Positions 7,373 through 63,834 of a stretch of DNA of 64,000 nt are shown here, in pieces. Position 1 is the stretch's first letter; each line of letters opens with the position of its first letter. The stretch lies in sequence record JN673056. The stretch is one strand, 5' to 3'. Below the pieces are notes generated by a model. It made no database searches and was not told where the DNA came from. It saw only the letters and a list, made by a program, of their open reading frames with translations. The position numbers were made by a program, and so were the translations under genes. The DNA is from Escherichia phage PhaxI.

Positions 7373-7412
7373 CCTGATTACACACAGCAATTTTGATTTG
7401 AGACCCTATATC

Positions 7413-7898
7413 ATGCTCCCATTACTCAATGTTCCAAAAGAACGTATGACGCCGGATAGTGAAGGCAAGACACATTACAACATATACAGTCGAAGCCGCA
7501 CCGAACTAGGCAGATTCCTTTCCCATTTTGCATACCATCCCATGGATACTGTTGATGGTAATTTCAACTCAATAGAAAGCTACTGGTATTGGCTAAAATA
7601 TCGCCACGACGACTTGCGTAGTCTTTATGGGAACGACGCCAAGCAATTTGGACAAACCCTGGCCAAGTCACGCATCGTTGTATTGTCCCCTGATGATCCC
7701 AAATTTAAACGAGACATTATCGCAGCAACGAGTCAAAAATTGCTGACAATGCCATCCAAGTTGAGATTCCAATTGGCCCATAGCCGTCTCCCCCTGATTC
7801 ACGCTTATGAACATCAGGGGAAATACAGTTTTCAAAACTCTATGGATTTTATCATACAGCATATTAACCGCTTCCGTCTAGAAGGATATTTGAAATGA
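7413..7898 (+). CDS. NADAR (YbiA/DUF1768)-like protein
   Basis: Segment HYNIYSRSRTELGRFLSHFAYHP...DGNFNSIESYWYWLKY matches the N-terminal signature of YbiA/NADAR proteins (FYS...G.FSNF..P...DG...SEHYFQA.K); the C-terminal NADAR motif was not recognised; the track ORF uses a TTG at 7398, first ATG is 7413. Confidence 0.4.
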   Translation: MLPLLNVPKERMTPDSEGKTHYNIYSRSRTELGRFLSHFAYHPMDTVDGNFNSIESYWYWLKYRHDDLRSLYGNDAKQFGQTLAKSRIVVLSPDDPKFKRDIIAATSQKLLTMPSKLRFQLAHSRLPLIHAYEHQGKYSFQNSMDFIIQHINRFRLEGYLK

Positions 7899-12820: not shown

Positions 12821-12869
12821 ATAAATTGGCGGTATAATTGCCGCCTAACCCCATAATGAGACAAATAAC

Positions 12870-26456: not shown

Positions 26457-26533
26457 AATAACACCTGGTAATGATTTCTTGGAATTATACTGCTACTGTC
26501 TTTATTGAATGGGGTTCCGAAGAACCCCGATTT

Positions 26534-28401: not shown

Positions 28402-28421
28402 GCATTATATGGGTAAATCGT

Positions 28422-29181: not shown

Positions 29182-29182
29182 G

Positions 29183-29711: not shown

Positions 29712-30901
29712 AATTTCCTCAGTTTTGCCCTTGTAATCTGAGTTTGTTTAATACCTTTGAATTCGGTCAATTCTTTGACACGACCTCGAATGATCATATC
29801 GCCTTCTAAAAACTCGGTTTCCATATAGGAAGTCTTCCATGTAATGGTATTGCCTTCCTTGGTTTTGAAAGTATACAGATACGTGTCACCATAATCAGAT
29901 GAATACAGGAAAATCCTTGCTTCAAATTTGACCTGTGCTTCTAACATTTCACCAACTTCACCAACCCAATTTGATACAGTGCGCGTTTGGCGGGGGGTGT
30001 GGATATAATCATAATACTTTGCTGCTCCCCAACGAACTGTTGTTGAGTCTTTAACAAGGTGATAACCAGGTTCGCACATACGTTTCAGCCGGACGTTGAA
30101 ATCGTTATTTTCAGACAACGATGCGATGAAAAGCATCATATGATACATCTCTGATTGAGCATCTTCACGGGCTTTAACAGCCTTGTTATAGAATATATCA
30201 ATGTCAGAACCTTTCTCCGGACGAGTCCCGCTAGAGATATGACCAAGAACTCGACCAAAATCATCACTTTTAATGCTCATTCCCGACAGCAAAACCTGAA
30301 AGCATTTACACAAATATCCTTCTGTGTCAACATAATCTGGTTCATTAACCCGATAAATCCCTTCTGGGTCATCTTCATCGGGGGTAAACATTTCGTGAAT
30401 AGACATGTAATAAGACATAACCGCATCAAGGGATTTCTGATGCGGGACATAATGATGCATACAGCTGCTACCCACGAGCATCTGTGCGCCAGATTGTTCG
30501 TTACGAACGACATATGTGTTATGACGACGCACAGATTTGTTGCAATGCTCGCACCAAGATACGTTTTCAGCTTCAAATCTTTGAATGAAATTTGGGTGGA
30601 TGTCATCTGACAGTTTATTCAGAATGACTTTTGGATACTGGTGGTTGAATTGTCCAATGATACTCCACCCACCATAAGAAACGGGGCGGTCGATGCCTTC
30701 ACCAGTTAGAGTACAATCTTGCCACCAACGATAAAATTTTTCGCCAGTGATAGAATCGCGGTGTTGTGTTTTGTATGGTTCACTGAACTCAACAAGAGGA
30801 AACTCGAGATTCAGGCGGTTTGCCGTTCTTTCAAGTTTGGCAAGACGTTCCTTGACACGACCAATATTATCAATTGGGATGCTGAAGGTCTTGGCTTTCA
30901 T
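29708..30901 (-). CDS. hypothetical protein
   Basis: 397-aa ORF, first gene of a tightly packed minus-strand operon; no motif recognised. Confidence 0.5.
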   Translation of the reverse strand: MKAKTFSIPIDNIGRVKERLAKLERTANRLNLEFPLVEFSEPYKTQHRDSITGEKFYRWWQDCTLTGEGIDRPVSYGGWSIIGQFNHQYPKVILNKLSDDIHPNFIQRFEAENVSWCEHCNKSVRRHNTYVVRNEQSGAQMLVGSSCMHHYVPHQKSLDAVMSYYMSIHEMFTPDEDDPEGIYRVNEPDYVDTEGYLCKCFQVLLSGMSIKSDDFGRVLGHISSGTRPEKGSDIDIFYNKAVKAREDAQSEMYHMMLFIASLSENNDFNVRLKRMCEPGYHLVKDSTTVRWGAAKYYDYIHTPRQTRTVSNWVGEVGEMLEAQVKFEARIFLYSSDYGDTYLYTFKTKEGNTITWKTSYMETEFLEGDMIIRGRVKELTEFKGIKQTQITRAKLRKL

Positions 30902-31018
30902 TTTTGCCTCTCATGATGTAGTGAAACTTTTCAATGTAGGTTAAATGATAGCCGCAAGTTTTATTGAAGTAAAGTTTTATTGAAGTAAAGCCCAACAAAT
31001 GTTGGGCTTTAACCGATA

Positions 31019-31666: not shown

Positions 31667-31729
31667 GATGTGCTCCTGGGTTAATATTCAGATCATAGAG
31701 ATTATACCCTATGATCACCATTATTGAAG

Positions 31730-37890: not shown

Positions 37891-37950
37891 TAAACAAAAG
37901 GAGCTGCTATTATAGCAGCCCCTTCATCTATTGAATGCTTCTGAGTTAAA

Positions 37951-38910
37951 TTACGCAGCAGCTTTCGCTTCGGCCAACGCCTGAGGTAGCCATTCGTTGA
38001 TAGCCTTTACCAGAGATTCAGCGTCAGTTTCTTTGATTTTCTGACGCTTGGTGAATGACTTACCATTCACATACAGACTGAAACCCCAGCCGCCGGAAAC
38101 GATAGGCGCCAGATCAACATAGGTGTTAGTGCGGGCATGCGGATTGGCTTCGTCTGCCAATTCAGTGACAGGGAACTGGAACCAGCGCATATCAGGGTTC
38201 ACATAACTCAAATATACTTCAGGAGTAACCCCTGCTTCAACCGCCGCCAGGATTGGACCATAGTTAGAAGCACGAGCCGCTTCAACCATTTCTTCACGCT
38301 TGTTATGACGACGCTTGCGTTCTTCGGTAGAAGATGCAGGGCGCATTTCAGAAGATTTCTTGGCCAGAACCGCCTTCGCGTTCGCTAAAGCCTGATCATC
38401 CTTCGGATTTTCAACGTCGGCGATTGCTTCAGCAACGGTTGTGCCCAGCATGCGACGGCGAACTTCTTCAGCACGGGCTTGCGCTTCTTCGTCAAGAACT
38501 TCTTCGCCTTCAACTACCAGGGAAATGGAACCGTCTTTGTTGACTTCAAGAGAACCGTCTTCGACGGTCTGGGAATTTTGATCACCGACAGGTTGCCCAA
38601 CCGTTTCTTCGGCGTCAATCACCGGATTTGATTCACCGTCGCCCTGTTTAACCCCCGCATCTTCGGTCGGTTTAACTTTTTCGGCTTCAGCGCGGTCAAG
38701 AGCTTCGAGAGTTTCTTCTTTCTCTTCCTGGCTCAGACCTTCAATGAGTTCAAAGCCGTTGGCTGACTGGAGGACGCCTTCCATCATACGGCGTAATGTT
38801 ACATTGCCAATGATAAGGTCTGCACCTTTGATTTCTGCTTGAAGATCAGCAGCGGTTTTACCATCAATTTCAAATTTCAGGCCGGACTCGATATGAAGAA
38901 TATAGGACAT
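37951..38910 (-). CDS. hypothetical acidic protein
   Basis: 319-aa ORF with long Glu/Asp-rich linkers. Confidence 0.45.
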   Translation of the reverse strand: MSYILHIESGLKFEIDGKTAADLQAEIKGADLIIGNVTLRRMMEGVLQSANGFELIEGLSQEEKEETLEALDRAEAEKVKPTEDAGVKQGDGESNPVIDAEETVGQPVGDQNSQTVEDGSLEVNKDGSISLVVEGEEVLDEEAQARAEEVRRRMLGTTVAEAIADVENPKDDQALANAKAVLAKKSSEMRPASSTEERKRRHNKREEMVEAARASNYGPILAAVEAGVTPEVYLSYVNPDMRWFQFPVTELADEANPHARTNTYVDLAPIVSGGWGFSLYVNGKSFTKRQKIKETDAESLVKAINEWLPQALAEAKAAA

Positions 38911-39083
38911 AATAAAAACCCTTTTGTGTAGTAACCTTCTTTGGCAGTCTAATGTTCAACTGTGCGTCTGGAACATTAATATACTGCCTTTTTAGAAGAT
39001 GTAAACCACTTTTTATTGAAAAGTTGGTTAACACTTCTGTGTTAGACAACGGAACGCTGTATCAGCGCGGACTGGCGTGAATA

Positions 39084-45697: not shown

Positions 45698-45710
45698 TTT
45701 CAGTCCTCGT

Positions 45711-45718
45711 TATAAATA
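45711..45718 (+). promoter_or_regulatory. T4-type late promoter (TATAAATA)
   Basis: Exact TATAAATA 29 nt upstream of the ATG at 45747. Confidence 0.55.
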
Positions 45719-45746
45719 CAATTACAATATACCGTGGAGATACATT

Positions 45747-48749: not shown

Positions 48750-49124
48750 ATGAAAGAGTACAAAGACATTGACCTGAAGTTTGGCATGCATCCGGTCACC
48801 AAAGATGTCACTAAGAAAACAGGCATTTATGCTGTACTACAATCTGTGCGAAATATCGTGATGTCTACAGTAGTGATTGGGCCGACGTATCCGAGTATTG
48901 GGGCGGGGTTGTATACCATGCTGGGAGAAAATACAAATCCCACGATTACAGTCGACGTGAGACAAAGTGAAGATGCCATGCTCTTTGAGCCAAGAGCTGA
49001 ATTGCAATCTGTTGATGTATCATTGTCTGACGATTATCATTCTCTGGGCGTAACCATCACGTTCTATGTGGTCAACAACCCAGAGCCGATAACAGACACC
49101 ATATGGTTAAAACGCACAAACTGA
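48750..49124 (+). CDS. 25: baseplate wedge protein (gp25/GPW/TssE family)
   Basis: Start ATG 48750 after AAAGGGG; pattern VLQSVRNIVMST..G...P..G......EN......V...........EPRAELQSVDV matches gp25/TssE. Confidence 0.55.
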   Translation: MKEYKDIDLKFGMHPVTKDVTKKTGIYAVLQSVRNIVMSTVVIGPTYPSIGAGLYTMLGENTNPTITVDVRQSEDAMLFEPRAELQSVDVSLSDDYHSLGVTITFYVVNNPEPITDTIWLKRTN

Positions 49125-49463
49125 TTAAGGTGCGTTGGTATTGGAGCGGTTGGTAATTATTTCAAAATGCGTCAGTAAACGGTACAGTAATTTCCCACCT
49201 ATTCTATGGACTATGGTGGTTGGCTTTAGGTTAACCACCACCCCATCTAGTCTCCCCGTCAACACAAATGTTAAACGAATGCGAAGGATATCACTGCCTT
49301 CAGAACGCATTATTTGACAGTCATGGCTGTACCCTATTTCTTTCCCTTTGAGGACAAGAGGAACATGTGCGCTTTCCTTTAACAGGGTATCTAAATTTTC
49401 AAATAAAGGTTCTTCTTTGTTATTGACGGAATACACCGTCTCTAATATCGGGAATTTATACAT
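49125..49463 (-). CDS. hypothetical protein
   Basis: 112-aa ORF. Confidence 0.4.
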   Translation of the reverse strand: MYKFPILETVYSVNNKEEPLFENLDTLLKESAHVPLVLKGKEIGYSHDCQIMRSEGSDILRIRLTFVLTGRLDGVVVNLKPTTIVHRIGGKLLYRLLTHFEIITNRSNTNAP

Positions 49464-49464
49464 A

Positions 49465-49926
49465 TCATGGCACCAACGTAATCACAATCATGTTGAGTAC
49501 CGTATCAACCGCGACACCAGAATCCTCTTCATGTATGGTTGAGGCGCGCAAGTGGATATCTGAAATATAATTGTCTATATGCATCGACGTCAAATAAGGA
49601 CGGTGTTGATACACAGGACGGTTGACCTGAACATATTCACGCAGAATGCTGAATGAAAAGTCTTCACATTGAGTGGTGTCAATGCGCAAAAATCTTTGAG
49701 CATGGCAGGTCTTTAACTCGGTCACTTTCCCCAAATAATGGAGGTCTCCGGATGAACCGATACGGAACATTACGTCTACTTCAGATTTGAAAATTTCGCG
49801 TTCAATAAGGGTCGCTGGTGCCCAACAAACTTCTTCCTTGTCTTCAGCAAACAACGTATCGATCACTTCTGGTAATTGGATATAACCAAAGTTGTGGCGG
49901 GGGTTGGTGAGTAATTTGTTGGACAT
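49465..49926 (-). CDS. hypothetical protein
   Basis: 153-aa ORF. Confidence 0.4.
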   Translation of the reverse strand: MSNKLLTNPRHNFGYIQLPEVIDTLFAEDKEEVCWAPATLIEREIFKSEVDVMFRIGSSGDLHYLGKVTELKTCHAQRFLRIDTTQCEDFSFSILREYVQVNRPVYQHRPYLTSMHIDNYISDIHLRASTIHEEDSGVAVDTVLNMIVITLVP

Positions 49927-49927
49927 G

Positions 49928-50161
49928 TTATGCTCCTATTACGTGCTGTTTGGCTTGTTCATAGGCTGTGCGGAGTTCAAGATAAGAATCTGCCAACAAC
50001 GGTGATTTGTCGTTTTTCCGATTCATGATTATTTGGTGGTTAACGACAGCACGGCGTAATCTGAGTTCTGCCACCCAGAATGCTTTTTGTTTTGCGTGTC
50101 CTGGACGGGCGCGTAGGTCGTGATAATGCATAGAAGCATGATATATTTCAGAGTTGGTCAT
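49928..50161 (-). CDS. hypothetical protein
   Basis: Start trimmed to the ATG inside the conserved AGGAACTATATCATG context (MTNSEIYH...). Confidence 0.4.
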   Translation of the reverse strand: MTNSEIYHASMHYHDLRARPGHAKQKAFWVAELRLRRAVVNHQIIMNRKNDKSPLLADSYLELRTAYEQAKQHVIGA

Positions 50162-50202
50162 GATATAGTTCCTGCTATTCAATTTGTGGCGTTGGCCAAT
50201 GA

Positions 50203-50231
50203 ATTACTGGGAAGTATAGGTGGGAAGGTTT
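50203..50231 (-). promoter_or_regulatory. sigma70-type (T4 early-like) promoter
   Basis: Minus strand TTTACT - 17 nt - TATACT, directly after the upstream terminator. Confidence 0.45.
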
Positions 50232-50248
50232 CAAAAGTAAAGCCCCTC
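50226..50248 (-). terminator. Rho-independent terminator
   Basis: GCCCCTC-AAT-GAGGGGC hairpin followed on the minus strand by UUUACUUUU, after the glutaredoxin gene stop. Confidence 0.55.
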
Positions 50249-50267
50249 ATTGAGGGGCTTTGAAAGA

Positions 50268-50492
50268 TCAGCGTTTCAAACTTGCGGCGAGTCCAGTAAC
50301 GTCGGTCACGGTTTGGTCAGCCAGAACAATCACGGGCATAGACATGCGTTGCTTACCAGTGATTTTCTGTAATTCTTCCAGCTTGTAGTCTTTGTCTAGC
50401 TTCAGAATTTGGTGTTCAATACCGCGAATGCGACAGATGTTTTCAGCTTGTAAACATTGCGCACAACCTTGTTTGGAATAAATCGTAATCAT
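50268..50492 (-). CDS. glutaredoxin/thioredoxin-like protein (NrdC/NrdH-like)
   Basis: 74 aa; redox motif YSKQGCAQC; last gene of the nrdA-nrdB operon. Confidence 0.65.
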   Translation of the reverse strand: MITIYSKQGCAQCLQAENICRIRGIEHQILKLDKDYKLEELQKITGKQRMSMPVIVLADQTVTDVTGLAASLKR

Positions 50493-50501
50493 TTCTCACC
50501 T

Positions 50502-51605
50502 TTAGGCAAATTTCAGACCGTCGGAGACTGATCCAGTAAGGACACCAGTCAGATAATCAGGGGCTTCCGCTTCCTGTAATGCATATTGCATTGTTTTATT
50601 ATCTAGCCACTCATTTATCCATGGCACTGGATTGTCTTTACGGGCTTGTCCTGGATATGGGTGGCCAATAGCTCCCATACGGTGTGTTGCCAACCAGTCC
50701 ACCATTTGATGAAGGATATTGGCATTCAGTCCCAGCATTGAGCCGTCTTTGAACAGATAATTTGCCCATTCTTTTTCTTGGTTGACAACGTCGACATACA
50801 CCTGGGTCATTTCGCCGCGCAGTTCTTCTCTAATAATGGCAAAATCAGGGTCCATTAGTGGCAGACGGTTCAGGAAAGTCTGGGTCAGGATGAGGTGATC
50901 TTGCTCATCACAAGCAATCTGGCGGATGATTTTAGCGTTCCCTTCCATTTTGTTAAGGAATTGCATGAATGCCCAAGAACACGCAAATGAAACATAGAAA
51001 CGGACGCCTTCGAGGGAGTTAGCAGCAAATAGAGCACGCCAGAATGCACGCTTGGCGTTCATGATGTCTTCACGGGTGAACGCGCGTCCAGCCATACGCA
51101 TCCCGCTGTAACGCACCATGTCGTCGTAGTATACACTGATCTGTCCGGCGCAATCGACGATCTCCTGAACGTCCAGAACATGGTCAAAAACGATACCAGG
51201 ATCATTCACTGTGTTACGAAGGATATGCGTATAAGATAGTGAGTGGATGGCTTCTTGGCGCGTCCACTCCAGAATAGCAAATTGCGCTTCTGGTGTTGAT
51301 GCCCATGGGCCAAACGCTTCGAACGGAGCAGCGCCCTGAATAGAATCCAGCATGGTCTGTCGTTTCAAATTGCTGAAGTAAATGTGTTGTTCTGCTGCGG
51401 AGAGCGTGGCGAAGTCGGCTTTGTCTTTGGTCACGTCTACTTCTTCCGGACGCCAGAATTGACTAAGACCTTTTTCATACCATTTCTGTACAAAAGGCCA
51501 TGCGACTTTGTCATAGCGTTGAATGCTCACAGGGTCGCCAAAGAACGGCAAACCTGTATTATCTGAAGATGGGTCAAATACTGAAAATTGCTTTTGTTCG
51601 TTCAT
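50502..51605 (-). CDS. nrdB: ribonucleotide reductase small subunit (class Ia beta)
   Basis: 367 aa; di-iron ferritin-like core (EAIHSLSYTHI, E..H ligands); directly downstream of nrdA. Confidence 0.85.
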   Translation of the reverse strand: MNEQKQFSVFDPSSDNTGLPFFGDPVSIQRYDKVAWPFVQKWYEKGLSQFWRPEEVDVTKDKADFATLSAAEQHIYFSNLKRQTMLDSIQGAAPFEAFGPWASTPEAQFAILEWTRQEAIHSLSYTHILRNTVNDPGIVFDHVLDVQEIVDCAGQISVYYDDMVRYSGMRMAGRAFTREDIMNAKRAFWRALFAANSLEGVRFYVSFACSWAFMQFLNKMEGNAKIIRQIACDEQDHLILTQTFLNRLPLMDPDFAIIREELRGEMTQVYVDVVNQEKEWANYLFKDGSMLGLNANILHQMVDWLATHRMGAIGHPYPGQARKDNPVPWINEWLDNKTMQYALQEAEAPDYLTGVLTGSVSDGLKFA

Positions 51606-51675
51606 GTTTCTTTCCTGATGAATAAGGGGTGACGAATCACCCCTGATATTAAACGTTTGTGTTGTATAGACCTAA

Positions 51676-53952
51676 TCAAACAACACAGGTGTCACAAATT
51701 TCTTCAACTTGTTTCAGCTCCTCGTCTTCCTTGGAGTCTTTGTTGGTGTTGTAATACAGAGTTTTACCACCCCACATGTAGAAAGACAGAATATCCTGCA
51801 TCATAAGAGAGCGCGGGATCTTGCCTTCTGGATATTTCTCTGGGTCATACCATGTGTTGGTGCTGATGGATTGATCTACCCAACGTTGTATGACCGCCGC
51901 CGTCTTCAGGTATTCAATACAATCCAGATTCCATTTCAGGTCATATAGAGGACCAAGGGTTTCTACATCCGGAACGATCTGTTTATAGACGCCGTCCTTG
52001 CTGCCTTTGATGCTGATGAGACCTTTTGGTGGCTCTATACCGTTCGTTGCGTTCAGCACCTGAGAGGAGCTTTCAGTTGGTGCTACGGCTAACAACGTGG
52101 CGTTACGGATCCCATACTCGGATAGGTTCTGCTTCAGACCTTCCCAGTCAAGACCATAGGCTTGCCCAACAGGCTTTTTGCCATTGGGTAGGATGTCCAG
52201 CGGGAGAGGCTGAAGGTCGGCTGTCACAAATCCAGAATCATGGATAGTTGACTTCTTACAAGATCCGAAACGCATGGCCAGACGGTTGGACGCTTTGACC
52301 AAGTAGAAATGAAGATGCGCCATCCACTTGTCTAGAAGTTCTAATCCGATAGGCGATCCATAACCCGTGAAATTCTTGGCCAGGAAATGTGCGACGTTGA
52401 CGATACCGATACCCAGAGGACGATATTCTTCTACGGCCAAACGGGCTTGGCGAGCTGGGTAGTCCTGATATTCCAACAACATATCCAAAGCTGAAACCAG
52501 AACGAAAGCAACATCTTCCATTTCTGTTGGATCTTCAAACGCCGTCAGGTTAAATGATGCGAGTGTACATAGGGCAATGCGACCATCTTCATCATCATAC
52601 TGTTGGAACTCACGAGTCGGAAGCGCGATTTCTAAACACAGATTAGAGCTATAAATCGTGTCCAAATTGAACGGACTATACTCGTTCATGTGATCAACGA
52701 ATGCGATGTAGATCCGTCCAGTGTCAGAACGCTGGTCTAGTAGCATTTGGAACACTTCTTCAGCTTGCAGCTTTTTGGAACGACATAACCCGGCGTCGGC
52801 AGCCTTGATCATATTGTCGTACATTTCGCGGAATTTATTGACGTCTGCGAAAAATGCTTCATACATTTCGCGGTTGTCTTTTGGATCAAACAGGTATAGA
52901 GGCTGTTTGTTCACCAGGCGCTCGAACATGACGCGGTTAATCTGAATCCCATAGTCGATACGGCGTTCACGGTTCTCTTCCAATCCACGGTTGTTTTTGA
53001 GAACAACGACATCATCAAATTGATAATGCCAGATGGGAACATAGCATGTTGCCGATCCACCACGGATACCGCCTTGAGAGCAAGACTTCAGGGCACCAGT
53101 CAAATACTTGATGAATGGAACCAGACCTGTATGGACCATTTCCCCTTTACGGATAGGGCTACCGATGCCACGAATTGCCCCAACATCGAATCCAATGCCA
53201 GCACGTTTGGAAACATAATCCACGATGCTTTTCGCAGTGGCATTAATTGAGTCCAATGTATCACCAGTTTTGATCAATACACAAGAGCTGAACTGTCGGG
53301 TCGGGGTGCGGACGCCGGACATAATAGGTGTTGGAAGACTGAATTTGCCTGTACTGGCGTATTCATAGAACTTCTTCACCATTGTCAGTCTGCTTTCTTT
53401 ATCCCACGCTGAGAATAATGCCATAGCGATTGCCATGTACATGACTTGAGGGGTTTCATAATACACTTTGCTGTCAGAAGAACGATCACGCAAAAGATAT
53501 TTTTGAGTCAGCTGGCCCATTGCTGCCCAAGTGAAATTCTTGTCGCGTTTGTGGTTGATGACTGTGTTAAGTTCTTCGAATTCTTCTTTAGAGTAAAGTT
53601 CGAGGAATTCACGATCATAAACGCCCTGCTTGATGTTTTTAGCGAAGATATCAAGCAAATGAGGTGGTTTGTACCGCCCATAGACGACTTTGCGCAGGTC
53701 ATACGATTTCAGGCGGGCAGCAACATATTGGTAGTTGGGTTTTTCTACGGAAATCAATGTAGCCGCCGCTTGGATGATAATATCCTGAATGCGTTCGGTT
53801 TTCATATTGTCTGTGAACTGAATCTTCGATGCTGCTTCTACCTCAGACACTGAAACTCCTTCTAAACCTTCACATGCACGTTCAAGAACAGTGTGGAGTT
53901 TTTCAATGTCAAAGGGGACAGAAGATCCGTCCCGCTTTATGATGTTAATCAT
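51676..53952 (-). CDS. nrdA: ribonucleotide reductase large subunit (class Ia alpha)
   Basis: 758 aa; N-terminal ATP-cone, active-site motif NLCLEIALP, C-terminal CDTC redox pair. Confidence 0.9.
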   Translation of the reverse strand: MINIIKRDGSSVPFDIEKLHTVLERACEGLEGVSVSEVEAASKIQFTDNMKTERIQDIIIQAAATLISVEKPNYQYVAARLKSYDLRKVVYGRYKPPHLLDIFAKNIKQGVYDREFLELYSKEEFEELNTVINHKRDKNFTWAAMGQLTQKYLLRDRSSDSKVYYETPQVMYMAIAMALFSAWDKESRLTMVKKFYEYASTGKFSLPTPIMSGVRTPTRQFSSCVLIKTGDTLDSINATAKSIVDYVSKRAGIGFDVGAIRGIGSPIRKGEMVHTGLVPFIKYLTGALKSCSQGGIRGGSATCYVPIWHYQFDDVVVLKNNRGLEENRERRIDYGIQINRVMFERLVNKQPLYLFDPKDNREMYEAFFADVNKFREMYDNMIKAADAGLCRSKKLQAEEVFQMLLDQRSDTGRIYIAFVDHMNEYSPFNLDTIYSSNLCLEIALPTREFQQYDDEDGRIALCTLASFNLTAFEDPTEMEDVAFVLVSALDMLLEYQDYPARQARLAVEEYRPLGIGIVNVAHFLAKNFTGYGSPIGLELLDKWMAHLHFYLVKASNRLAMRFGSCKKSTIHDSGFVTADLQPLPLDILPNGKKPVGQAYGLDWEGLKQNLSEYGIRNATLLAVAPTESSSQVLNATNGIEPPKGLISIKGSKDGVYKQIVPDVETLGPLYDLKWNLDCIEYLKTAAVIQRWVDQSISTNTWYDPEKYPEGKIPRSLMMQDILSFYMWGGKTLYYNTNKDSKEDEELKQVEEICDTCVV

Positions 53953-54036
53953 AGCGATCCTCGGTTTGTGTTAATGCAGGCTGTTATTATACGTCGCCTC
54001 CATGGATTGAAGGCGACGGGGAAGTTCGTGTGGTAT

Positions 54037-54912
54037 TTAAATGTTGTACAGGTCGTTAATTTCTAACATCAGGCGGGTGAAGTTGCCGCGACCATTACGA
54101 TCAGACTTATCGAATTCGATGATGCTGAATGGTTGAACCCACTCTGGATATTCATCTCCGATTTCTACACCGTCAATTTGCAAGGAACCTGTTTCCAGCT
54201 TGTTGTTGAAGTCTTTAAAGGAATCCACATACGTCTGTAACGCACTATCACGCAGTCGCTTGTTGGACTGTTTGATATCTCCATTCACGAAGATGTACGA
54301 AGAATCTGAAGCGCGAGTCAACAAGTTTTTCAGCTGCTCCATATCGCATTCCTGCGCTTCTTCGATAATCAGGAAACACTCATCGAAAGTCATCCCCTTT
54401 ACAGTTTCAAGGTCTTGAATTTCTATGATGCGTTTCTCCCACAGATAGTTGAAGAAACCGTCGGAACCCGTATCTGTTTTGAGAACCTTTTTGAATGTCT
54501 GTATGAGCGGCATCAAATAAGGCATCAGCTTTTCATATGTGTCACCAGGCCGGAACCCTGCTGTGGTGCCAGTTGGAAGGGGAGAACGCGTGATGATAAT
54601 CTTGTTGATGGTTTTGTCAATCAGATGTTTTGCTGCAGCAGATGCACCACAATAGGATTTGCCTGTACCTGCCGGACCGATAGCGATAGTGAGATGTTCA
54701 TTGAGTGCGGATTGATATGCGAGGTTCTGATTTTCTGAGAGGCCATTGAACGGAGCAATTTTGAAATCGCCTTTGGAAAACTTCATCCAGTCTTCTTCCT
54801 TCTGGATGGTGTCTTTCTTACGAGCAGATTTTGTCTTCGCTGGCTTCATGGATACAACTTTAGACGCAGATTGCATGTTGAACCTTCCTATATCTACAGG
54901 GGTTGTCGACAC
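54037..54912 (-). CDS. phoH: PhoH-family ATPase
   Basis: 291 aa; Walker A GPAGTGKSY and overall PhoH-like layout. Confidence 0.8.
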   Translation of the reverse strand: MSTTPVDIGRFNMQSASKVVSMKPAKTKSARKKDTIQKEEDWMKFSKGDFKIAPFNGLSENQNLAYQSALNEHLTIAIGPAGTGKSYCGASAAAKHLIDKTINKIIITRSPLPTGTTAGFRPGDTYEKLMPYLMPLIQTFKKVLKTDTGSDGFFNYLWEKRIIEIQDLETVKGMTFDECFLIIEEAQECDMEQLKNLLTRASDSSYIFVNGDIKQSNKRLRDSALQTYVDSFKDFNNKLETGSLQIDGVEIGDEYPEWVQPFSIIEFDKSDRNGRGNFTRLMLEINDLYNI

Positions 54913-54950
54913 CTTTAATTAAGCGACACGCCCAGCATACCTGTATATCA

Positions 54951-54978
54951 GATAAAGAAAAAGGCCGTTTCCGGCCTT
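54951..54978 (-). terminator. Rho-independent terminator
   Basis: AAGGCCG-TTTC-CGGCCTT hairpin followed on the minus strand by UUUCUUUAUC, after the endolysin stop. Confidence 0.6.
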
Positions 54979-54983
54979 GAGAA

Positions 54984-55796
54984 TTAGCAGAAACTCTTGT
55001 ATGCTGCCGCCAGTTTAGTATCATACTGGTTTTTCGCATATGCCGGACCATTGTACCGACGAGCAAACTCGGCCCAATTCTTATTCTTCAGGGCTTTCCA
55101 CATATTGGCGTCAGCTTTGATGAATTTCACAAATGCCAGAAGATGAGCGCGTTCACCAGTCAGGAAATCAGTGAACATCTCTTTGGCATTTGAATAGCCA
55201 CAGATTTGGCAGTTGAACCCCATGATCTGGAATAGGCCGTAGGAAGCACTCTCGTAAGCGCAGTCCTCGTCAAGGGCGATTGCACCCTGAAGGCGTTCCA
55301 ACTCCGCGTCTCCGCCGATATACCCGCCAGAATTGGGGTTAACCAATGTTGGGTAGAGTTGGTACAGAGCATTGGCTCTTGCTTGCCCGAATTTGGCCGT
55401 CACCTTTTTGTACATGATGTGGCGCTCAAACAGAGTTTTGATCTTGCCAGTTTTGGTAAAACCCGTGCCACGGGATTCTACCTGATTCACAGCTTTCATA
55501 CTGGCCAGTTCAACACCAAGTTCACGTGCTGCGTCAACCAAGTCCGCTTCGGTCAGATGTTCCTGATGAGCGTCTCCAGCGTTGCGGATAGCATAGAAGG
55601 TCTTTGGCCCAGCAATACCATCAATAACCAATCCAGCACCTGCCTGAACGGATTTGACAGCATTCTCTGTTGCCTTACCAAATATGCCATCGGCTGTAAG
55701 GGAGAAACCGATTTTGTTGAGGCTTTGTTGAAGCGCTTTGACTTCAGAACCTCGGTTTCCAAGTTTTAGAATGGCCATAAGAAAATACCTCCGCAA
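54984..55796 (-). CDS. endolysin (peptidoglycan-binding domain plus N-acetylmuramidase-like domain)
   Basis: N-terminal PG_binding_1-like repeat (GSEVKALQQSLNKIGF...DGIFGKATENAV); C-terminal GLFQIMGFN motif typical of phage muramidase domains. Confidence 0.7.
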   Translation of the reverse strand: MRRYFLMAILKLGNRGSEVKALQQSLNKIGFSLTADGIFGKATENAVKSVQAGAGLVIDGIAGPKTFYAIRNAGDAHQEHLTEADLVDAARELGVELASMKAVNQVESRGTGFTKTGKIKTLFERHIMYKKVTAKFGQARANALYQLYPTLVNPNSGGYIGGDAELERLQGAIALDEDCAYESASYGLFQIMGFNCQICGYSNAKEMFTDFLTGERAHLLAFVKFIKADANMWKALKNKNWAEFARRYNGPAYAKNQYDTKLAAAYKSFC

Positions 55797-55847
55797 TGTA
55801 TGCGAAGGTATTTAAAGTGAAAGTCGAACTTGAGGATTTAGTGTCGA

Positions 55848-56036
55848 TTATCTGACTACGACGACAGGCATGATTTCTTTGAAGGAAGTCCTAACTTCGG
55901 AATCATACCCATATTTTTCAAATATTTTCAACATCGCTTGTTCCAGTTCCTCTTGGAACTGAGGAAAGTGCGCGTTGGGAATTCGGTCGGCAACCCATAG
56001 AGCGCCAGGAGAGGCTTGGATAATTGCTCTACTCAT
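55848..56036 (-). CDS. hypothetical protein
   Basis: 62-aa ORF. Confidence 0.35.
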   Translation of the reverse strand: MSRAIIQASPGALWVADRIPNAHFPQFQEELEQAMLKIFEKYGYDSEVRTSFKEIMPVVVVR

Positions 56037-56060
56037 GTCTCATTCTCCTACCAAAACTTT

Positions 56061-56083
56061 GAAAGGGGGAGGTTTCCCCCTTG
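56061..56083 (-). terminator. Rho-independent terminator
   Basis: GGGGGA-AACC-UCCCCC followed by UUUC on the minus strand, after the 56087 stop. Confidence 0.55.
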
Positions 56084-56086
56084 CGG

Positions 56087-56572
56087 TTAAGCCAATTTGT
56101 TCACCAGAGTTTCTACTGCCTCGGCGCTCAGTTTACCCATTTTGACATACTGGGATTTCGCTTCACCGCCAGCGGCTTTCACGATATCGCTGTTGTCATA
56201 ACCCTTTTTCGGGAATACCATCACGGAGAAGGTTCCGTTGTTCAGCGGGTTCAGCTGAATGCGACCTTTACCGACTACGATGGTGCCGTAAGTTTCGGTG
56301 TTCGCTTCGACAACGTGGATGTCATGGCCCAGGTCTTTCAGCATGCCAACCTTGTCAGCAGTCTTGGCAACCACGGCTTTGTCTACGACAACCTGCTCTA
56401 CCAGGGTGAAGCCGTTGGTCGCTTTCACTTTGCCGTTCAGCAGATTCATGAAGGAAGTTTTGCCACCAGTGAAGCCAGCTGCCTGAGCGATGCGGAACAT
56501 TTCAACTTTTGCAACTTCGGTGTTCAGTTCAAAAGAGATGGTGCCGTTGGTGATCAGAGTTTTGGTAGTAGC
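56087..56572 (-). CDS. hypothetical protein (candidate abundant protein)
   Basis: Start trimmed to ATG in AGGAATTACATCATG context (MATTKTLITNG...); own promoter-like element upstream and terminator downstream; beta-rich Gly/Val/Thr composition. Confidence 0.45.
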   Translation of the reverse strand, partial: ATTKTLITNGTISFELNTEVAKVEMFRIAQAAGFTGGKTSFMNLLNGKVKATNGFTLVEQVVVDKAVVAKTADKVGMLKDLGHDIHVVEANTETYGTIVVGKGRIQLNPLNNGTFSVMVFPKKGYDNSDIVKAAGGEAKSQYVKMGKLSAEAVETLVNKLA

Positions 56573-56652
56573 CATGATGTAATTCCTCATAATGTAGTTG
56601 GGTCGTTTCACTTTTCATTCGGCGGGGTGTTGTGTACCGCCCTATGTGAACT

Positions 56653-56681
56653 ATAATAGTGCATGATTATTGAAGAGTAAA
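56653..56681 (-). promoter_or_regulatory. sigma70-type (T4 early-like) promoter
   Basis: Minus strand TTTACT - 17 nt - TATTAT, directly after a terminator hairpin. Confidence 0.45.
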
Positions 56682-56718
56682 GTCTTTTTCAATAAATTTT
56701 TAAATTATTTTTGAAGTA

Positions 56719-56746
56719 TTTTAAAAGGCCTCGTAGAATGAGGCCT
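56719..56746 (-). terminator. Rho-independent terminator
   Basis: AGGCCUC-AUUCUAC-GAGGCCU followed by UUUUAAAA on the minus strand. Confidence 0.55.
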
Positions 56747-56774
56747 AGAGAGAAGGTTTTTGAGTTAAAAAGTT

Positions 56775-56984
56775 TTAGGTCGGCTTCTTTTTCAAATACT
56801 GGCGAGCCAAATCCATTTGTTCTTCAGTGATAGGACAACCGCCGAAGTCCACCATTCCATTCCTCCAACCATGGATGAAACTCTTAGATTCTAAGCCAGA
56901 TAGGACATATCCTTCACGGGCTTGCATATACCCGCGAAGAATCTCTTCATCGTCCATACTATTCAGTTCTTTCAAATCCATCAT
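56775..56984 (-). CDS. hypothetical protein
   Basis: 69-aa ORF overlapping the primase stop (ATGA). Confidence 0.4.
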   Translation of the reverse strand: MMDLKELNSMDDEEILRGYMQAREGYVLSGLESKSFIHGWRNGMVDFGGCPITEEQMDLARQYLKKKPT

Positions 56985-58045
56985 ATCTTCCTCAAGTCAG
57001 AAAATCGTAAGGACGCCGACAGTCCCTGATATACGTTCTTGGCTATGATCTGAAGCAGATCACGTATCGGGATATTTCCCTTATCGGGGTGAACCATATC
57101 ATTGATATCCTTCCACGGTATTTCCGGTGGAAACAGAACGACTTTGACTCCGCTGTCTATCATCTTCTGTATACCGTCACAAACTTGTTTGTTCCTGTAT
57201 TGGTAATCGGGGATATAGATGTCTCCCTTAGCACTTAATAAGTCGGCATCGGCAGTCGCAAGACAATTGGGTAGAAACAAGCTATCAATTGGACCTTCTA
57301 CTACCAACTTTGTTTTGTTCCAAATGATGCGCTCTTCCCCGTAGATCTTAGTATCTTCGTTCTTAGGCTTGACAGTGGCATACCGTAATACCCCATCAGG
57401 AAGGTTATCGCCGAATGCGCGCCCCTGAACTATCTTCATGCGCCCGTCTTGGGTCCAGAATGGGATTACCAGCCGCTCATCTTCGGGTATCTTCTTCTGC
57501 TTCTCAACATCCGTTTCGAAACTCAGAAGATCTTGACGAAAATTCCTGCTGTAATACAACAAAGATAACGTGCTCTCCGGCATACCCCTGCCTTCAACAT
57601 AACGACGGGCGATATGATCACGGTCAAGAAGATCAAGGCGTATCATATTCCCAAGGTGCTCTTCATCCCGTTTGGCGACCTGAGAACCGATACGTGCTGT
57701 CTGGGTCAGGCGCTGTAGTGGTTTGAGTTTTTGTAACGGGCGGGAACTGGTATCCCCCATGATCCTGAATTTTTCAAGGTTGTATTCATTATACAGACGC
57801 TCGTCAAACTTCTTCAACCAGAATTCAAACGCCCAACCGCTCATTTCATTACAGTTGTGGCACTTGAAACGAAACACATCGTCATCACGATCATAAAAGA
57901 AGTGACCACGACGCTTGTTGGCACTCTTCTTAGAATCCCCACATAATGGGCAACGAAATTTGGCGACAGCGCCAACACGTTCCCAACTGAATTTATCAAG
58001 TCGGGGGGCGAGAAAATTGATGTATTGTTCGTCCAAGAATTTCAT
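56981..58045 (-). CDS. 61: DNA primase (gp61-like; zinc ribbon plus Toprim)
   Basis: 354 aa; zinc ribbon CPLCGDSKK...CHNC; Toprim motif LVVEGPIDSLFL; size like T4 gp61. Confidence 0.8.
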   Translation of the reverse strand: MKFLDEQYINFLAPRLDKFSWERVGAVAKFRCPLCGDSKKSANKRRGHFFYDRDDDVFRFKCHNCNEMSGWAFEFWLKKFDERLYNEYNLEKFRIMGDTSSRPLQKLKPLQRLTQTARIGSQVAKRDEEHLGNMIRLDLLDRDHIARRYVEGRGMPESTLSLLYYSRNFRQDLLSFETDVEKQKKIPEDERLVIPFWTQDGRMKIVQGRAFGDNLPDGVLRYATVKPKNEDTKIYGEERIIWNKTKLVVEGPIDSLFLPNCLATADADLLSAKGDIYIPDYQYRNKQVCDGIQKMIDSGVKVVLFPPEIPWKDINDMVHPDKGNIPIRDLLQIIAKNVYQGLSASLRFSDLRKI

Positions 58046-58662
58046 TAGATATTTGGCCTCTGGAACACTTCTGTCACATTATAATCCACCCCGCGACTTT
58101 GAGCTATGCAAAGCTGTCGCCAAGCCCCATACAGAATATTTTGTTCCGCAACCTGATTGCGTTCAAAGTTGGCAAATTCTTCCAGCATCTGTTTGTACCC
58201 TAATAGATAAGGAGGGATATCTGTAGGACTCTTGCCAAAGATGGCCAAAGACAAATATGATGCATAATGTTCCGGTGAAGACAAAGAGGAAATATGCATA
58301 TTCGGAACGTGAACGGGCTTCAAAGATTTTCTAGGGGTGAAGTACAACAAACCCCCATTTGGAGGGAGGTCTTCAATTTTAATAACATCTGCTGGGCAAA
58401 CATAGAAACGATATGCTCCCATGCCTATGGAAGGATTCATGCGATGAGGTTTCTTTTTGTCTGTCAGGAAGTCGGCGCGGGAGACTTTAACTTCCATTAA
58501 TATAGAACAACCCCCAGGTCTGAACCCGATGGCGTCAGGGGATTCACGATTATCGAATGAATTTGGTTCTACGAACACAGCACCACAATTCATTTGTTTG
58601 TGTAGAAATTTTGCAGCGATTTGACAACCTTCTGAGTGAGAAGGTATAAAGATTTTGCCCAT
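58045..58662 (-). CDS. hypothetical protein, possible PD-(D/E)XK nuclease fold
   Basis: Segment DAIGFRPGGCSILMEVKVSRADF has D...E.K spacing reminiscent of PD-(D/E)XK nucleases; weak. Confidence 0.3.
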   Translation of the reverse strand: MGKIFIPSHSEGCQIAAKFLHKQMNCGAVFVEPNSFDNRESPDAIGFRPGGCSILMEVKVSRADFLTDKKKPHRMNPSIGMGAYRFYVCPADVIKIEDLPPNGGLLYFTPRKSLKPVHVPNMHISSLSSPEHYASYLSLAIFGKSPTDIPPYLLGYKQMLEEFANFERNQVAEQNILYGAWRQLCIAQSRGVDYNVTEVFQRPNI

Positions 58663-59125: not shown

Positions 59126-59135
59126 TATTTTATAA

Positions 59136-59681
59136 TCACTTTTTACCAAAAAACGATTTTAATAAATTATCAGGAATTTTTGGAAGACCTAATTTTGCCG
59201 CCAGTTCTTCTGGGGAATTACCCAAAATTTTTCTACCGTTGATGAGACCACCAACAAATTTGGTTCGATCTGTTGGACTGCGAAGGATAGTGGAGGCACC
59301 GCCAACTTTTGCGTCATACATCAGAATATGAGCGCCACGGTCACCGACGAAACGCCAGCCTTCCGCTTCAGTAACCTGACCTTTGTCAGCTGACTTGCCG
59401 AAGAAAAATTCAAAACCATCATGGACGGCAACAACTTCTTGGCCTTGGGTAATGCCGTGGGTCTGGTCTGGAGTTAGCTTCACTTTGATGGTGTTGCCAT
59501 TAGTCAATTCCAGATTATAGATGTCGGCCTGATTATCTGGAGTGATCTGGGTCACGGTGGCACCAGTACACCATTGGGTTCCGTCGGCCTGTTTGGTGAT
59601 GGTTACACTTTTGCCTTGTATGCCGCCATGAGTTTGCGGTTGTTGAGCTTGTTCTTTAAAATATTCGATAAACGGTTTCAT
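59136..59681 (-). CDS. hypothetical protein, candidate capsid-packaged (internal) protein; paralog of a segment of the 795-aa neighbour
   Basis: N-terminus MKPFIEYFKEQ resembles T4 capsid-targeting sequences (MKTYQEFIAEA); C-terminal 120 aa align with residues about 170-300 of ORF 59733..62120 (shared ...SP...LGLP(K/Q)IP.N.L..F). Confidence 0.4.
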   Translation of the reverse strand: MKPFIEYFKEQAQQPQTHGGIQGKSVTITKQADGTQWCTGATVTQITPDNQADIYNLELTNGNTIKVKLTPDQTHGITQGQEVVAVHDGFEFFFGKSADKGQVTEAEGWRFVGDRGAHILMYDAKVGGASTILRSPTDRTKFVGGLINGRKILGNSPEELAAKLGLPKIPDNLLKSFFGKK

Positions 59682-62120: not shown

Positions 62121-62198
62121 TGTAATTCTCCTGATTATAAAATCGGTGCGGTTTCCCTTAATTAGCGAAAAGAAAGGGATGCTAACACCCCTTTATTC

Positions 62199-62474
62199 TT
62201 AACGACGGAACGGGCGAGACGCGTTTTGGCGATTGTTGTAATTCTTATCAAATTGTGCCAACGCCGCCGGACTCCATTCGCGTTCCCATTCTTTGTCAAC
62301 TTCGGTTTGGTTGGCAGGTTCAATCATTTCAGCAGTAGGAAAATCGCGTTTCATAATTTCACGCAATTGTTCAGAAGGGGCGGTTTGGGCGTGGACTAAT
62401 TCTTCACCGTCGTAAACTTTGGCCATCAACCATTTGCTGCCGTAACGGATATATGCGTCGAGGATGATTTTCAT
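62199..62474 (-). CDS. hypothetical protein
   Basis: Start trimmed to ATG inside the conserved AGGAACTACATTATG context (MKIILDAYIRY...). Confidence 0.4.
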   Translation of the reverse strand: MKIILDAYIRYGSKWLMAKVYDGEELVHAQTAPSEQLREIMKRDFPTAEMIEPANQTEVDKEWEREWSPAALAQFDKNYNNRQNASRPFRR

Positions 62475-62522
62475 AATGTAGTTCCTGCTTTTCAAGTTGG
62501 TGTCGTACTGCTTATGTTTAGA

Positions 62523-62550
62523 ATTATACGTGGGTTATTGAAGAAGTAAA
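62523..62550 (-). promoter_or_regulatory. sigma70-type (T4 early-like) promoter
   Basis: Minus strand TTTACT - 16 nt - TATAAT, directly after a terminator hairpin. Confidence 0.45.
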
Positions 62551-62568
62551 GGGGCTTTTGCCCCTTTT
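62545..62568 (-). terminator. Rho-independent terminator
   Basis: GGGGC-AAAA-GCCCC followed by UUUACUUCUUC on the minus strand. Confidence 0.55.
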
Positions 62569-62578
62569 ATTGAATATT

Positions 62579-63217
62579 TTAAGGTGTTGGATTGACAACG
62601 GGAATATGGAACCTGATTCCAGAGACAATGTCCTTCAGCTGAGGCTTCCAGCCGTCCACCAGGCGGGACAACGCGTTAGAACCAGGATAGACAATAATGA
62701 TGTCGCTTCCGGTTACATTATGTTGAGGGAATTGTGACATGTATTGCTCCATCGTCACCCCTGGGTCTATCAACACAGGACCGACATCCGAAGATGCATA
62801 TGTTGCCCCCAAACCGTCGACGCCCCATGCTAGTATTCCATAATCAGGAATATTGGCTTCAGAAGTTATGGTGAATCCGAAGATACGATTCAGCGCAGAA
62901 AAATCATACACGCCGTGAGCACTGTCATATGTCAGATAACCCTTTGACAGCATATCAGCGAATATCGCGTCTGTGTCACCAGTTGCCGGAGTCGGTATGG
63001 TAAACAATAACTCACCAGCAGGAGGGGATGGATACGTGCCGAGCGCATAAAGGCACCAAGCGTCAATGCATTTCTTGATGAATGCTTCAGGCGCGACATA
63101 ATCCGCAAGGCGCATTGTACCGGAATATTCTGAAGTAATGATCCCTTCCTTCGCGCCCTGAATGGCCAGAAATACCATTATGTGTTCATATCCGGTCTGA
63201 GATGGAGTGATATTCAT
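62579..63217 (-). CDS. hypothetical protein
   Basis: 212-aa ORF; overlaps upstream stop by 1 nt. Confidence 0.45.
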   Translation of the reverse strand: MNITPSQTGYEHIMVFLAIQGAKEGIITSEYSGTMRLADYVAPEAFIKKCIDAWCLYALGTYPSPPAGELLFTIPTPATGDTDAIFADMLSKGYLTYDSAHGVYDFSALNRIFGFTITSEANIPDYGILAWGVDGLGATYASSDVGPVLIDPGVTMEQYMSQFPQHNVTGSDIIIVYPGSNALSRLVDGWKPQLKDIVSGIRFHIPVVNPTP

Positions 63218-63834
63218 TATCTGGTCCTCTTGAGTTTCTCAATCGTGCGCTTATTCATGGCGATCACTCCTGGGTCGACCTTTGGGTTTATTGCCATGCC
63301 TTTGAAAGACACACATCGTTGAAGATATTTAGCCTTCTTCACGACGTCGGCTGCATAAGAATTGGATTTCTGGTTACGATTGAACCCAGCATTGTAAGAG
63401 GAAAGGGATTTGCGGATGTTTTGGTTGTGATATTCTAGCCAGAAATTCATTTCATCAAGGGCAGCATTGGCAGCATATTCTTGATTGACCAGTAATTTGA
63501 TCGCGACATTGGCGTAACACTTCTGTGTTTTGCATCCCTCCCGTTTCCCGACGGTTTGGACGCGATTTTGAAATGCCCCCATATTAGCCGATTTGAGGTT
63601 ATTCCGCATGGATACAACATCTTCTCCGGCGCGGCTTTCCCTCCATGATATTGCGGCGAGGGTGAAACCAAGGTCTTGTTGTTTTCCCACGTGATAGGCT
63701 GTGGCCATGGTTGAAAGTTGTTGATCAGAAAACCCATAATCACATTGGGTGGTACTTTGGGAAGCGTGCACACTCCCGCTGGCAATGGTAAAGGTCACGG
63801 ACAAGGCCATGGCCTTCAACGTTGTCATCGTCAT
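63217..63834 (-). CDS. secreted lytic-transglycosylase-like protein (SLT domain) with signal peptide
   Basis: N-terminal signal peptide MTMTTLKAMALSVTFTIASGSVHA (AxA site); SLT-like catalytic region ISWRESRAGEDVVSMRNNLKSANMGAFQ (E-S ... GA.G..Q). Confidence 0.45.
   Translation of the reverse strand: MTMTTLKAMALSVTFTIASGSVHASQSTTQCDYGFSDQQLSTMATAYHVGKQQDLGFTLAAISWRESRAGEDVVSMRNNLKSANMGAFQNRVQTVGKREGCKTQKCYANVAIKLLVNQEYAANAALDEMNFWLEYHNQNIRKSLSSYNAGFNRNQKSNSYAADVVKKAKYLQRCVSFKGMAINPKVDPGVIAMNKRTIEKLKRTR

Follow-up and report, generated by a model that had tools for sequence, protein, structure and literature searches.

Why should three minus-strand genes in one stretch of phage DNA be preceded by nearly the same run of hairpin, promoter-like element and ribosome-binding site (RBS)? 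The stretch is 64,000 nucleotides (nt) of Escherichia phage PhaxI (record JN673056; hereafter the window, to whose full length all positions refer), and the three places, here called sites 1-3, had been described in an earlier note as a reiterated module with T4-early-like promoters that may mark a co-regulated gene set. We consider it likely that each of the sites holds a copy of a composite regulatory cassette that occurs in the Ackermannviridae and works like the promoter-early stem-loop (PeSL) cassettes of T4-like phages. The predicted architecture of hairpin, T4-early-like promoter and RBS is present at the sites, and its individual elements are ordinary; what the earlier note missed is that the cassette is dispersed and that the sites are located at hotspots of gene exchange.

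Direct reading places TTTACT-N16/17-TATACT/TATTAT/TATAAT on the minus strand at all three sites, with spacers of 17, 17 and 16 nt. The shared initiation context AGGAAYTAYATYATG occurs exactly at 50173-50159, 56587-56573 and 62486-62472 and nowhere else in the window, and its chance expectation, by our own arithmetic, is ~0.001 matches per 128 kb of two-strand sequence. The pattern TTTACT-N15-18-TAWWMT is found four times versus 0.40 expected, a count reached by 0 of 100 shuffles, and three of the four matches are sites 1-3 (50241-50213, 56681-56653, 62550-62523). The looser TTTAC[AT]-N16-18-TAnnnT is not significant by itself (7 versus 3.0 +/- 1.6); what makes the promoters significant is the stricter pattern, their position between genes and on the coding strand, and the profile search described below. 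Exact-pattern counts, shuffles and the profile search together rule out a chance resemblance of the sites. A scan of viral contigs with the 16-mer TTTACTTCTTCAATAA returned mostly chance matches in unrelated contigs and was not used.

Two other claims about the layout fared differently. The hairpin was said to merge into the -35 throughout; it does so at sites 1 and 3 (50261-50239, 62567-62548), but the site 2 hairpin is 44 nt upstream of the -35, across an A/T-rich, UP-like stretch (56725-56682). The N-terminal NYIM peptide given to these genes by the open reading frame (ORF) track is, as proposed, an artefact of mechanical starts at TTG 50182, GTG 56611 and TTG 62495, 21-36 nt upstream of the ATG, because PHROG profiles match end to end from the ATG (1-77/78, 1-162/162 and 1-91/91 at sites 1, 2 and 3) and RefSeq records start there. 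An in-frame TGA in the 'extension' of one bering copy likewise rules the peptide out. AGGAA, an 8-nt spacer and ATG follow each other in the same way at sites 1-3, where the -10 is 39, 65 and 36 nt from AGGAA, respectively.

The likeness of the sites extends well past these short motifs. The window is Kuttervirus DNA: positions 49000-57000 are 98-99% identical to Kuttervirus phages such as pSC20, bering and SJ3 (ViI-like, Ackermannviridae; megablast), and the minus strand of this region carries nrdA, nrdB, glutaredoxin, phoH, endolysin and primase genes and many hypothetical genes. An nhmmer profile was built from site 3 orthologues of other phages, two bering copies from outside the window region (38280 and 148593) and the copy in phage PC3, with sites 1 and 2 left out. 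Because this profile recovers site 1 (E = 3.5e-8, 50246-50158) and site 2 (E = 2.5e-4, 56698-56587) near full length, we regard sites 1-3 as homologous over ~90-110 nt; at site 2 the alignment stops at the first of two copies of the initiation context (ACTACATTATG). The same profile finds five full copies in bering (38263, 73860, 79836, 86288 and 148578); at an E-value limit of 1e-3, bering has five copies and the window three. The complete bering genome has nine intergenic TTTACT-type promoters, all on the same strand, and in its copy at 38280 a GGGG..CCCC stem covers the interval from -35 to -10. A 103-nt module query (blastn) matched 770 places in 281 phage records, 2-4 per genome, with hosts that include Salmonella, Klebsiella, Escherichia, Dickeya, Serratia and Shigella. 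An intergenic survey and a TTTAC[AT] scan added two minus-strand sites (4 and 5) in the window that share only the promoter style with sites 1-3; the cassette profile did not detect site 5.

Across genera, the site 3 module from stop codon to ATG is 80-86% identical, versus 69-76% for the adjacent coding sequence. Between the window and Dickeya phage LIMEstone1, which belongs to another subfamily, the modules of sites 2 and 3 are 90.2% and 86.4% identical, and the figures for the primase, endolysin and DUF7270 genes are 73.5%, 77.1% and 76.6%. Invariant in the aligned orthologues are TTTACT, the -10, the spacer motif TTCAATA, CATAAGCAGTAC, TTGAAA and the AGGAACTAYATYATGA/ATG context. The invariance of TTTACT and TTCAATA and the pairing of the stem were read from a site 3 alignment of eight phages from four or more genera. 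The 8-bp stem is 100% paired in all eight, with one compensatory G:C to A:T change and variation at all four loop positions, a covariation that is weak evidence but consistent. Judged from these alignments, the sites repeat a single dispersed cassette that is found family-wide and is conserved beyond its functional hexamers, through the whole leader.

What changes between relatives is the gene behind the cassette. The site 3 slot holds at least four unrelated ORFs (91 amino acids [aa] in the window, 123 aa in bering, 122 aa in barely and 111 aa in allotria) that cannot be aligned with one another and fall into four different PHROGs. Up to the ATG, the module of bering is identical to that of the window; the two phages then run into unrelated ORFs, each with its own hairpin, after which homology returns at TTTCGCTAATTAAGG. 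The window's allele is present in only 94 of 191 records, and the distribution of alleles disagrees with taxonomy, since Klebsiella phage 0507-KN2-1 has the window's allele and the phages of Dickeya, Serratia (IME250) and Escherichia (LHE287) have that of allotria. At site 1, pSC20, allotria and others hold an additional 128-aa ORF between two hairpin-TTTACTTTT-promoter-ACTAYATCATG modules, and a 31-nt direct repeat (hairpin plus -35, 50229-50259) lies at the junction of this insertion. A precise deletion in pertopsoe removes the 77-aa ORF of site 1 and fuses the ATG of the module to the following ORF; Det7 has a homing endonuclease gene between hairpin and promoter with TTTACTTT flanking it on both sides. 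Allotria is without the site 4 module and its 397-aa gene.

The junctions of these ORF swaps lie at the ATG and at the hairpin, and 3 of the ~11 indels between the window and allotria fall at modules, which make up ~1% of the window. The cassettes mark hotspots at which ORFs are inserted, deleted and replaced, and the left junction is the conserved ATG context. Copies also occur out of place: in PC3 (Escherichia, Aglimvirinae) and maane (Kuttervirus), an ectopic module and ORF stand directly after the tail-sheath terminator in the late structural cluster, and bering has the same terminator with no insert. The PC3 block differs from the bering site 3 block by 1 nt in 79 (our own comparison), despite the different subfamilies. 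The ectopic ORF family also fills site 3 in some Kutterviruses and occurs in T4-like Straboviridae, where it stands between a GTTTACA-N16-TATTAT promoter and a terminator. PeSLs concentrate in hyperplastic regions and not in core modules; in bering, four of the nine TTTACT-type promoters precede ORFs that carry no similarity note, but the copies are few, and the site 2 gene is highly conserved.

Breakpoints against bering or allotria also occur away from the cassettes, at 10443-10452, 12846-13286, 15341-15595, 18103-18681, 28375-29244, 55838-55850, 58044-58049 and 59126-59367. Homing-endonuclease genes or gene fragments of the other phage lie at some of these places, and different intergenic hairpins at others.

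The closest known system is the PeSL, and not simply a promoter class, because the sites belong to a family-wide cassette at hotspots of ORF exchange. PeSLs comprise a stop codon in A/T-rich DNA, an early sigma-70-type promoter, a G-run/C-run stem-loop and a 3' Shine-Dalgarno (SD) sequence with ATG; they are repeated in the genome beside ORFan indels, with crossovers mapped to the stem-loop or to the stretch from the -10 to the ATG (Arbiol et al. 2010, PMC2839356; Comeau et al. 2014, PMC4122927). The layout, the repetition and the indel-linked placement of PeSLs, as far as they can be read from sequence, appear in the cassettes. The upstream stop codon lies in an A/T-rich stretch at sites 2 (AAAATAATTTAAAAATTTATTGAAAAAG), 3 (TAA within TAAAATATTCAATAAAA) and 5 (TTTTCAATAAAAAG); at site 1 this feature is weak. 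Sigma-70-type -35 and -10 hexamers are recognizable at sites 1-3 and also at sites 4 (-10 TATCAT) and 5 (-10 TATATT), and predicted stem-loops overlap the -35 at sites 1, 3 and 4 (folding free energy, dG, -13.6 to -16.6) or, at site 2, lie at the distance given above (-11.2). As in PeSLs, SD and ATG form the 3' end, there are several similar copies per genome, indels or replacements with differing ORFans separate close relatives at sites 1, 3 and 4, junctions fall in the stem-loop or between -10 and ATG, and the -35 can be degenerate or duplicated, as at site 4. The cassettes differ from PeSLs in belonging to the Ackermannviridae and not the Straboviridae and in being known from sequence alone. 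They also have fewer copies (~5 full and ~9 promoter-type per 156 kb), a leader and initiation region that is much more strictly conserved and is reused without the promoter, and at least one copy (site 2) that is stable before a conserved gene.

Liebig and Rueger (1989) are said to have described T4 early promoters with consensus ribosome-binding regions, and the cassettes resemble these promoters in the -35 (GTTTAC-type), the -10 (TATAAT-type), the A/T-rich DNA upstream and the RBS style common to early genes. The T4-early likeness asserted in the earlier note agrees with the consensus TTTACW-N17-TAYWAT given for T4/PST cassettes (Comeau et al. 2014, PMC4122927): the -35 is TTTACW at all five sites and the -10 is TAYWAT at sites 2 and 3, those of sites 1, 4 and 5 each being one position off. 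The phage family is a different one, however, and ViI-like phages are reported to have no Alt, Mod, MotA or AsiA homologues (CBA120 genome paper, 2011). Lambdoid morons are likewise small accessory ORFs, each having a promoter and a terminator of its own, between conserved genes, but they have no shared conserved flanks, whereas the cassettes have homologous repeat flanks and precise junctions. Integron cassettes are also exchangeable single-ORF units on an expression platform that stays fixed, and each unit has an imperfect hairpin at its end; here, in contrast, no integrase or attC-type site was identified, and the promoter travels with the ORF or directly precedes it. The exchange of cassette ORFs probably proceeds by general homologous recombination.

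A working scheme for the cassette can be proposed. The G/C stem-loop would end or attenuate transcription from the upstream gene, and a host sigma-70-type, T4-early-flavoured promoter (TTTACT, 16-17 nt, TATAMT/TATTAT), at times with an UP-like A/T stretch, would follow it. The transcript would begin with an A-rich, G-poor, unstructured leader of ~40-70 nt and reach a fixed initiation region, TTGAAA..(A)AGGAACTAYATYATG. The cassette may in this way insulate and re-start transcription ahead of small accessory genes. It would also offer recombination homology at the hairpin/-35 on one side and at the initiation region on the other; as the block is repeated within and between phages, we propose that this homology allows ORFs between the ATG and the next hairpin to be inserted, deleted and exchanged. 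We infer promoter and terminator activity and early timing, and likewise that the cassettes cause the exchanges rather than mark permissive sites. The leaders are 33-42% A and 13-18% G, with structure like that of shuffled controls (z -0.4 to +1.2). A structured RNA element was considered and ruled out, since no Rfam family matched in a search of the whole window and the leaders fold no better than shuffles. The cassette-driven ORFs have no Pfam domains, and every PHROG that they matched is of unknown function.

Several points weigh against likening the cassettes to PeSLs in function. Approximately 8 of 11 indels between the window and bering or allotria lie away from the modules, several with homing endonucleases, so that plasticity has several sources, of which the cassettes are one; the site 2 module, in front of a highly conserved gene, is stable. 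The U-tracts after the hairpins are broken (UUUACUUCUU; tails UUUACUU(U/C)U, split by AC), and a consensus terminator scan of the minus strand did not call the hairpins of sites 1 and 3. The -35 TTTACT agrees with TTGACA at only 4 of 6 positions. Kuttervirus DNA reportedly has hypermodified thymidine, whose bearing on promoter recognition is a further caveat. The initiation context also stands at genes without the promoter, so that its conservation may partly reflect translation and not recombination. The searchable literature holds no experimental evidence on promoters, terminators or timing, and no transcriptome or transcription-start data, for the Ackermannviridae. The terminator scan did list the hairpin that follows the site 3 ORF, and LIMEstone1 and other records mark terminators in these regions.

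The reuse of the initiation context leaves room for a translational role, either as an efficient unstructured translation initiation region (TIR) or as a RegA-like operator. In bering, a degenerate form of the motif occurs 21 times versus 6.3 +/- 2.0 in shuffles and stands at at least 13 annotated starts, among them rIIA, the annotated RNA-polymerase ADP-ribosylase and many ORFans, many of them without a promoter. The annotated ADP-ribosylase gene (gp062) and the adjacent gp063 share an identical 38-nt upstream block, ACCCCGCCTATTTGAAATTGCAGGAACTATATCATGAC, without a TTTACT promoter. With the context shared in this way, the co-regulated set suggested in the earlier note is plausible. The initiation region (TTGAAA..AGGAACTAYATYATG) may even be mainly an RNA operator for a phage repressor, or a nuclease site, defining a post-transcriptional early regulon; we find this possible but on balance doubtful, and it would be compatible with the cassette. 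The motif enrichment and the gp062/gp063 block point towards such an operator, as does bering gp049, whose annotation is that of a RegA-like translation repressor. In T4, RegA binds initiation regions rich in A/U, e.g. those of rIIB and gene 44. However, the motif is missing here from the TIRs of the genes for the clamp, the clamp loader and the RegA-like protein, which are RegA targets in T4, and the 'RegB'-annotated gene near site 3 has no RegB match. A link to the RegB nuclease was rejected, as this gene (63217-63834, minus) gave only a marginal SLT-domain Pfam match (E = 2e-4). The label 'RegB' or 'RegB family endoribonuclease', used for it in several related records, looks doubtful.

Alternatively, the promoters may be activator-dependent middle promoters, as the LIMEstone1 record labels them, and not immediate-early elements needing sigma-70 only, with the octamer TTCAATAA as activator site. 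The LIMEstone1 record places a 'putative middle promoter' in the orthologous intergenic regions of sites 2 and 3, TTCAATAA is enriched (20 versus 4.8 expected), TTCAATA is invariant in the site 3 spacer, and a separate TTCAAT-N14-16-TATAAT class exists in the window (5 versus 0.06 expected). We nevertheless think this assignment unlikely: TTTACT is conserved, and its spacing of 16-17 nt to the -10 is the canonical one that T4 early promoters show, MotA and AsiA homologues are among those reported missing from ViI-like phages, and the box lies 6-10 nt from the -10 in the cassettes versus 12-14 nt in the second class. No TGCTT box, which takes the place of the -35 at ~-30 in the MotA-dependent middle promoters of T4, is present at sites 1-3. 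In the LIMEstone1 record (HE600015; 13691-13731, 7429-7498), the annotated terminator, -35 and -10 do not match the places of the actual hairpin and hexamers and appear shifted by ~21-26 nt.

The units could also be independent and moron-like, each with its own promoter, RBS and terminator, alike through convergence on host preference and with no role for the modules in recombination. The context at at least 13 genes, many without a promoter, the stability of site 2 and the majority of indels lying elsewhere would suit such units, but the likeness runs through spacer and leader positions of no known function, the PC3 module and bering site 3 are nearly identical across subfamilies, a duplicated hairpin/-35 flanks insertions and junctions fall exactly at the ATG, which makes this explanation quite improbable. 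A long shot, at most, is a start-codon-anchored, integron-like exchange platform in which single ORFs, each closed by a G/C hairpin, would be swapped precisely behind a fixed promoter, leader and ATG, the leader, initiation region and TTCAATAA would be operators, and one phage factor would switch the accessory set off as the TTCAAT-N14-16-TATAAT class switches on.

According to the CBA120 genome paper (2011), informatics could not identify the early promoters of ViI-like phages; promoters and transcription go unmentioned in a 2024 review of the Ackermannviridae, and our literature search found no paper treating PeSLs together with this family. The terminator and middle-promoter annotations of LIMEstone1 at sites 2 and 3 indicate that individual signals, and not the cassette, had been noticed earlier. 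The cassettes give a testable early-type promoter and leader consensus for a family widely used in Salmonella and E. coli biocontrol and in engineering, and they extend the PeSL idea, regulatory cassettes doubling as recombination linkers, beyond T4-like phages. Foreign ORFs are tolerated, and putatively expressed, at natural 'landing pads' (sites 1 and 3 and the position after the tail-sheath gene), which may be of use for inserting reporters or payloads.

Table 1. Parts of the cassettes and related elements (window positions unless stated; sites 4 and 5 and the lone plus-strand context were missed by the earlier note)
Feature	Position	Strand	Remarks
Site 1 hairpin (AAAGCCCCTC-AAT-GAGGGGCTTT)	50239..50261	minus	3' arm shares 3 nt with -35
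Site 1 promoter-like element	50213..50241	minus	TTTACT 50241-50236, 17-nt spacer, TATACT 50218-50213
Site 1 leader and initiation region	50159..50212	minus	A-rich, unstructured; AGGAA 50173-50169; ATG 50161-50159
Site 2 upstream hairpin (AGGCCTC...GAGGCCT), then TTTTAAAA	56726..56746	minus	dG -11.2
Site 2 promoter-like element	56653..56681	minus	TTTACT, 17-nt spacer with TTCAATAA, TATTAT
Site 2 leader	56573..56652	minus	Includes hairpin of the 5' untranslated region, GGGCGG...CCCGCC, at 56642-56621
Site 3 hairpin (AAAGGGGC-AAAA-GCCCCTTT)	62548..62567	minus	dG -13.6; 3' arm overlaps -35
Site 3 promoter-like element	62523..62550	minus	TTTACT, 16-nt spacer (TCTTCAATAACCCACG), TATAAT
Site 3 leader (CATAAGCAGTACGACACCAACTTGAAA...) and AGGAACTACATTATG	62472..62522	minus	ATG 62474-62472
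Site 3 replaceable cassette	62173..62471	minus	91-aa ORF 62474-62199 and its own terminator-like hairpin 62194-62173
Site 4	30899..31011	minus	Hairpin 31011-30986, dG -16.5, overlapping -35
Site 4 promoter		minus	Tandem CTTTACTTCAATAAAA x2, 30990-30959; TTTACT at 30989 and 30973; TATCAT 30950-30945
Site 4 start		minus	Relic context ACTACATCATG 30922-30912; new SD GAGG; ATG 30901-30899; 397-aa ORF, PHROG 2319
Site 5	38908..39005	minus	GGTTTACA, 16-nt spacer, TATATT 38983-38978; TTTTCAATAAAAAG upstream
Lone initiation context (TTTTGATTTGAGACCCTATATCATG)	7388..7415	plus	Real ATG 7413; mechanical ORF over-extended from TTG 7398
Upstream blocks of gp062 and gp063	bering record 57640-57740, 58200-58300		7640-7740 and 8200-8300 of the bering stretch

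The sites differ in detail (Table 1). The site 1 hairpin (dG -16.6 kcal/mol, RNAfold) lies 3' of the glutaredoxin gene and is a putative terminator or attenuator; its ORF encodes 77 aa (PHROG 5206, function unknown), and its leader has a minimum-free-energy z of -0.4. The site 2 hairpin is kept in LIMEstone1, whose record marks a terminator in that intergenic region. Site 2 has tandem in-frame initiation contexts, an SD-less ACTACATTATG (56598-56588) followed by AGGAATTACATCATG with the real ATG (56575-56573), and LIMEstone1 likewise keeps both (~7350-7385 of its stretch). The tandem contexts at site 2, and at site 4 the relic ATG context with its new SD and ATG, look like scars of earlier ORF replacement. 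The site 2 ORF (56087-56575, minus; 162 aa, PHROG 3764) has no Pfam domain; the gene shows 89% DNA identity between Kuttervirus and Limestonevirus, where typical genes show ~75%, and its UP-like tract and its leader are the longest in the set. The site 3 ORF belongs to PHROG 5704. The bering record marks the site 4 tandem repeat as a repeat_region, and the site 5 leader leads to ATG 38910 of a 319-aa ORF (PHROG 3905).

Other promoter-like signals are present in the window. The TTCAAT-N14-16-TATAAT sites (minus strand; 26484-26509, 28404-28429, 31701-31728, 37909-37935 and 53986-54011) all lie between genes and upstream of genes on the minus strand, nrdA among them, and at several of them a hairpin loop contains TATAAT or the box (e.g. 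GATCATAGGGTATAATCTCTATGATC, GGGGCTGCTATAATAGCAGCTCC). Their geometry recalls the MotA-box middle promoters of T4 and 'PmSL' elements, in phages that reportedly have neither MotA nor AsiA. The octamer TTCAATAA (e.g. 62535-62542, 62567-62574, 56667-56674, 30961-30984 and 39013-39020), fourfold enriched window-wide, occurs in the spacers of TTTACT promoters and upstream of their hairpins and could be the site of a DNA-binding factor. On the plus strand, a T4-late-type TATAAATA box (cgTTATAAATAcaatt) lies at ~45700-45746, just 5' of the baseplate hub gene (start 45747), and ATAAATA is also found upstream of the gene at 47060.

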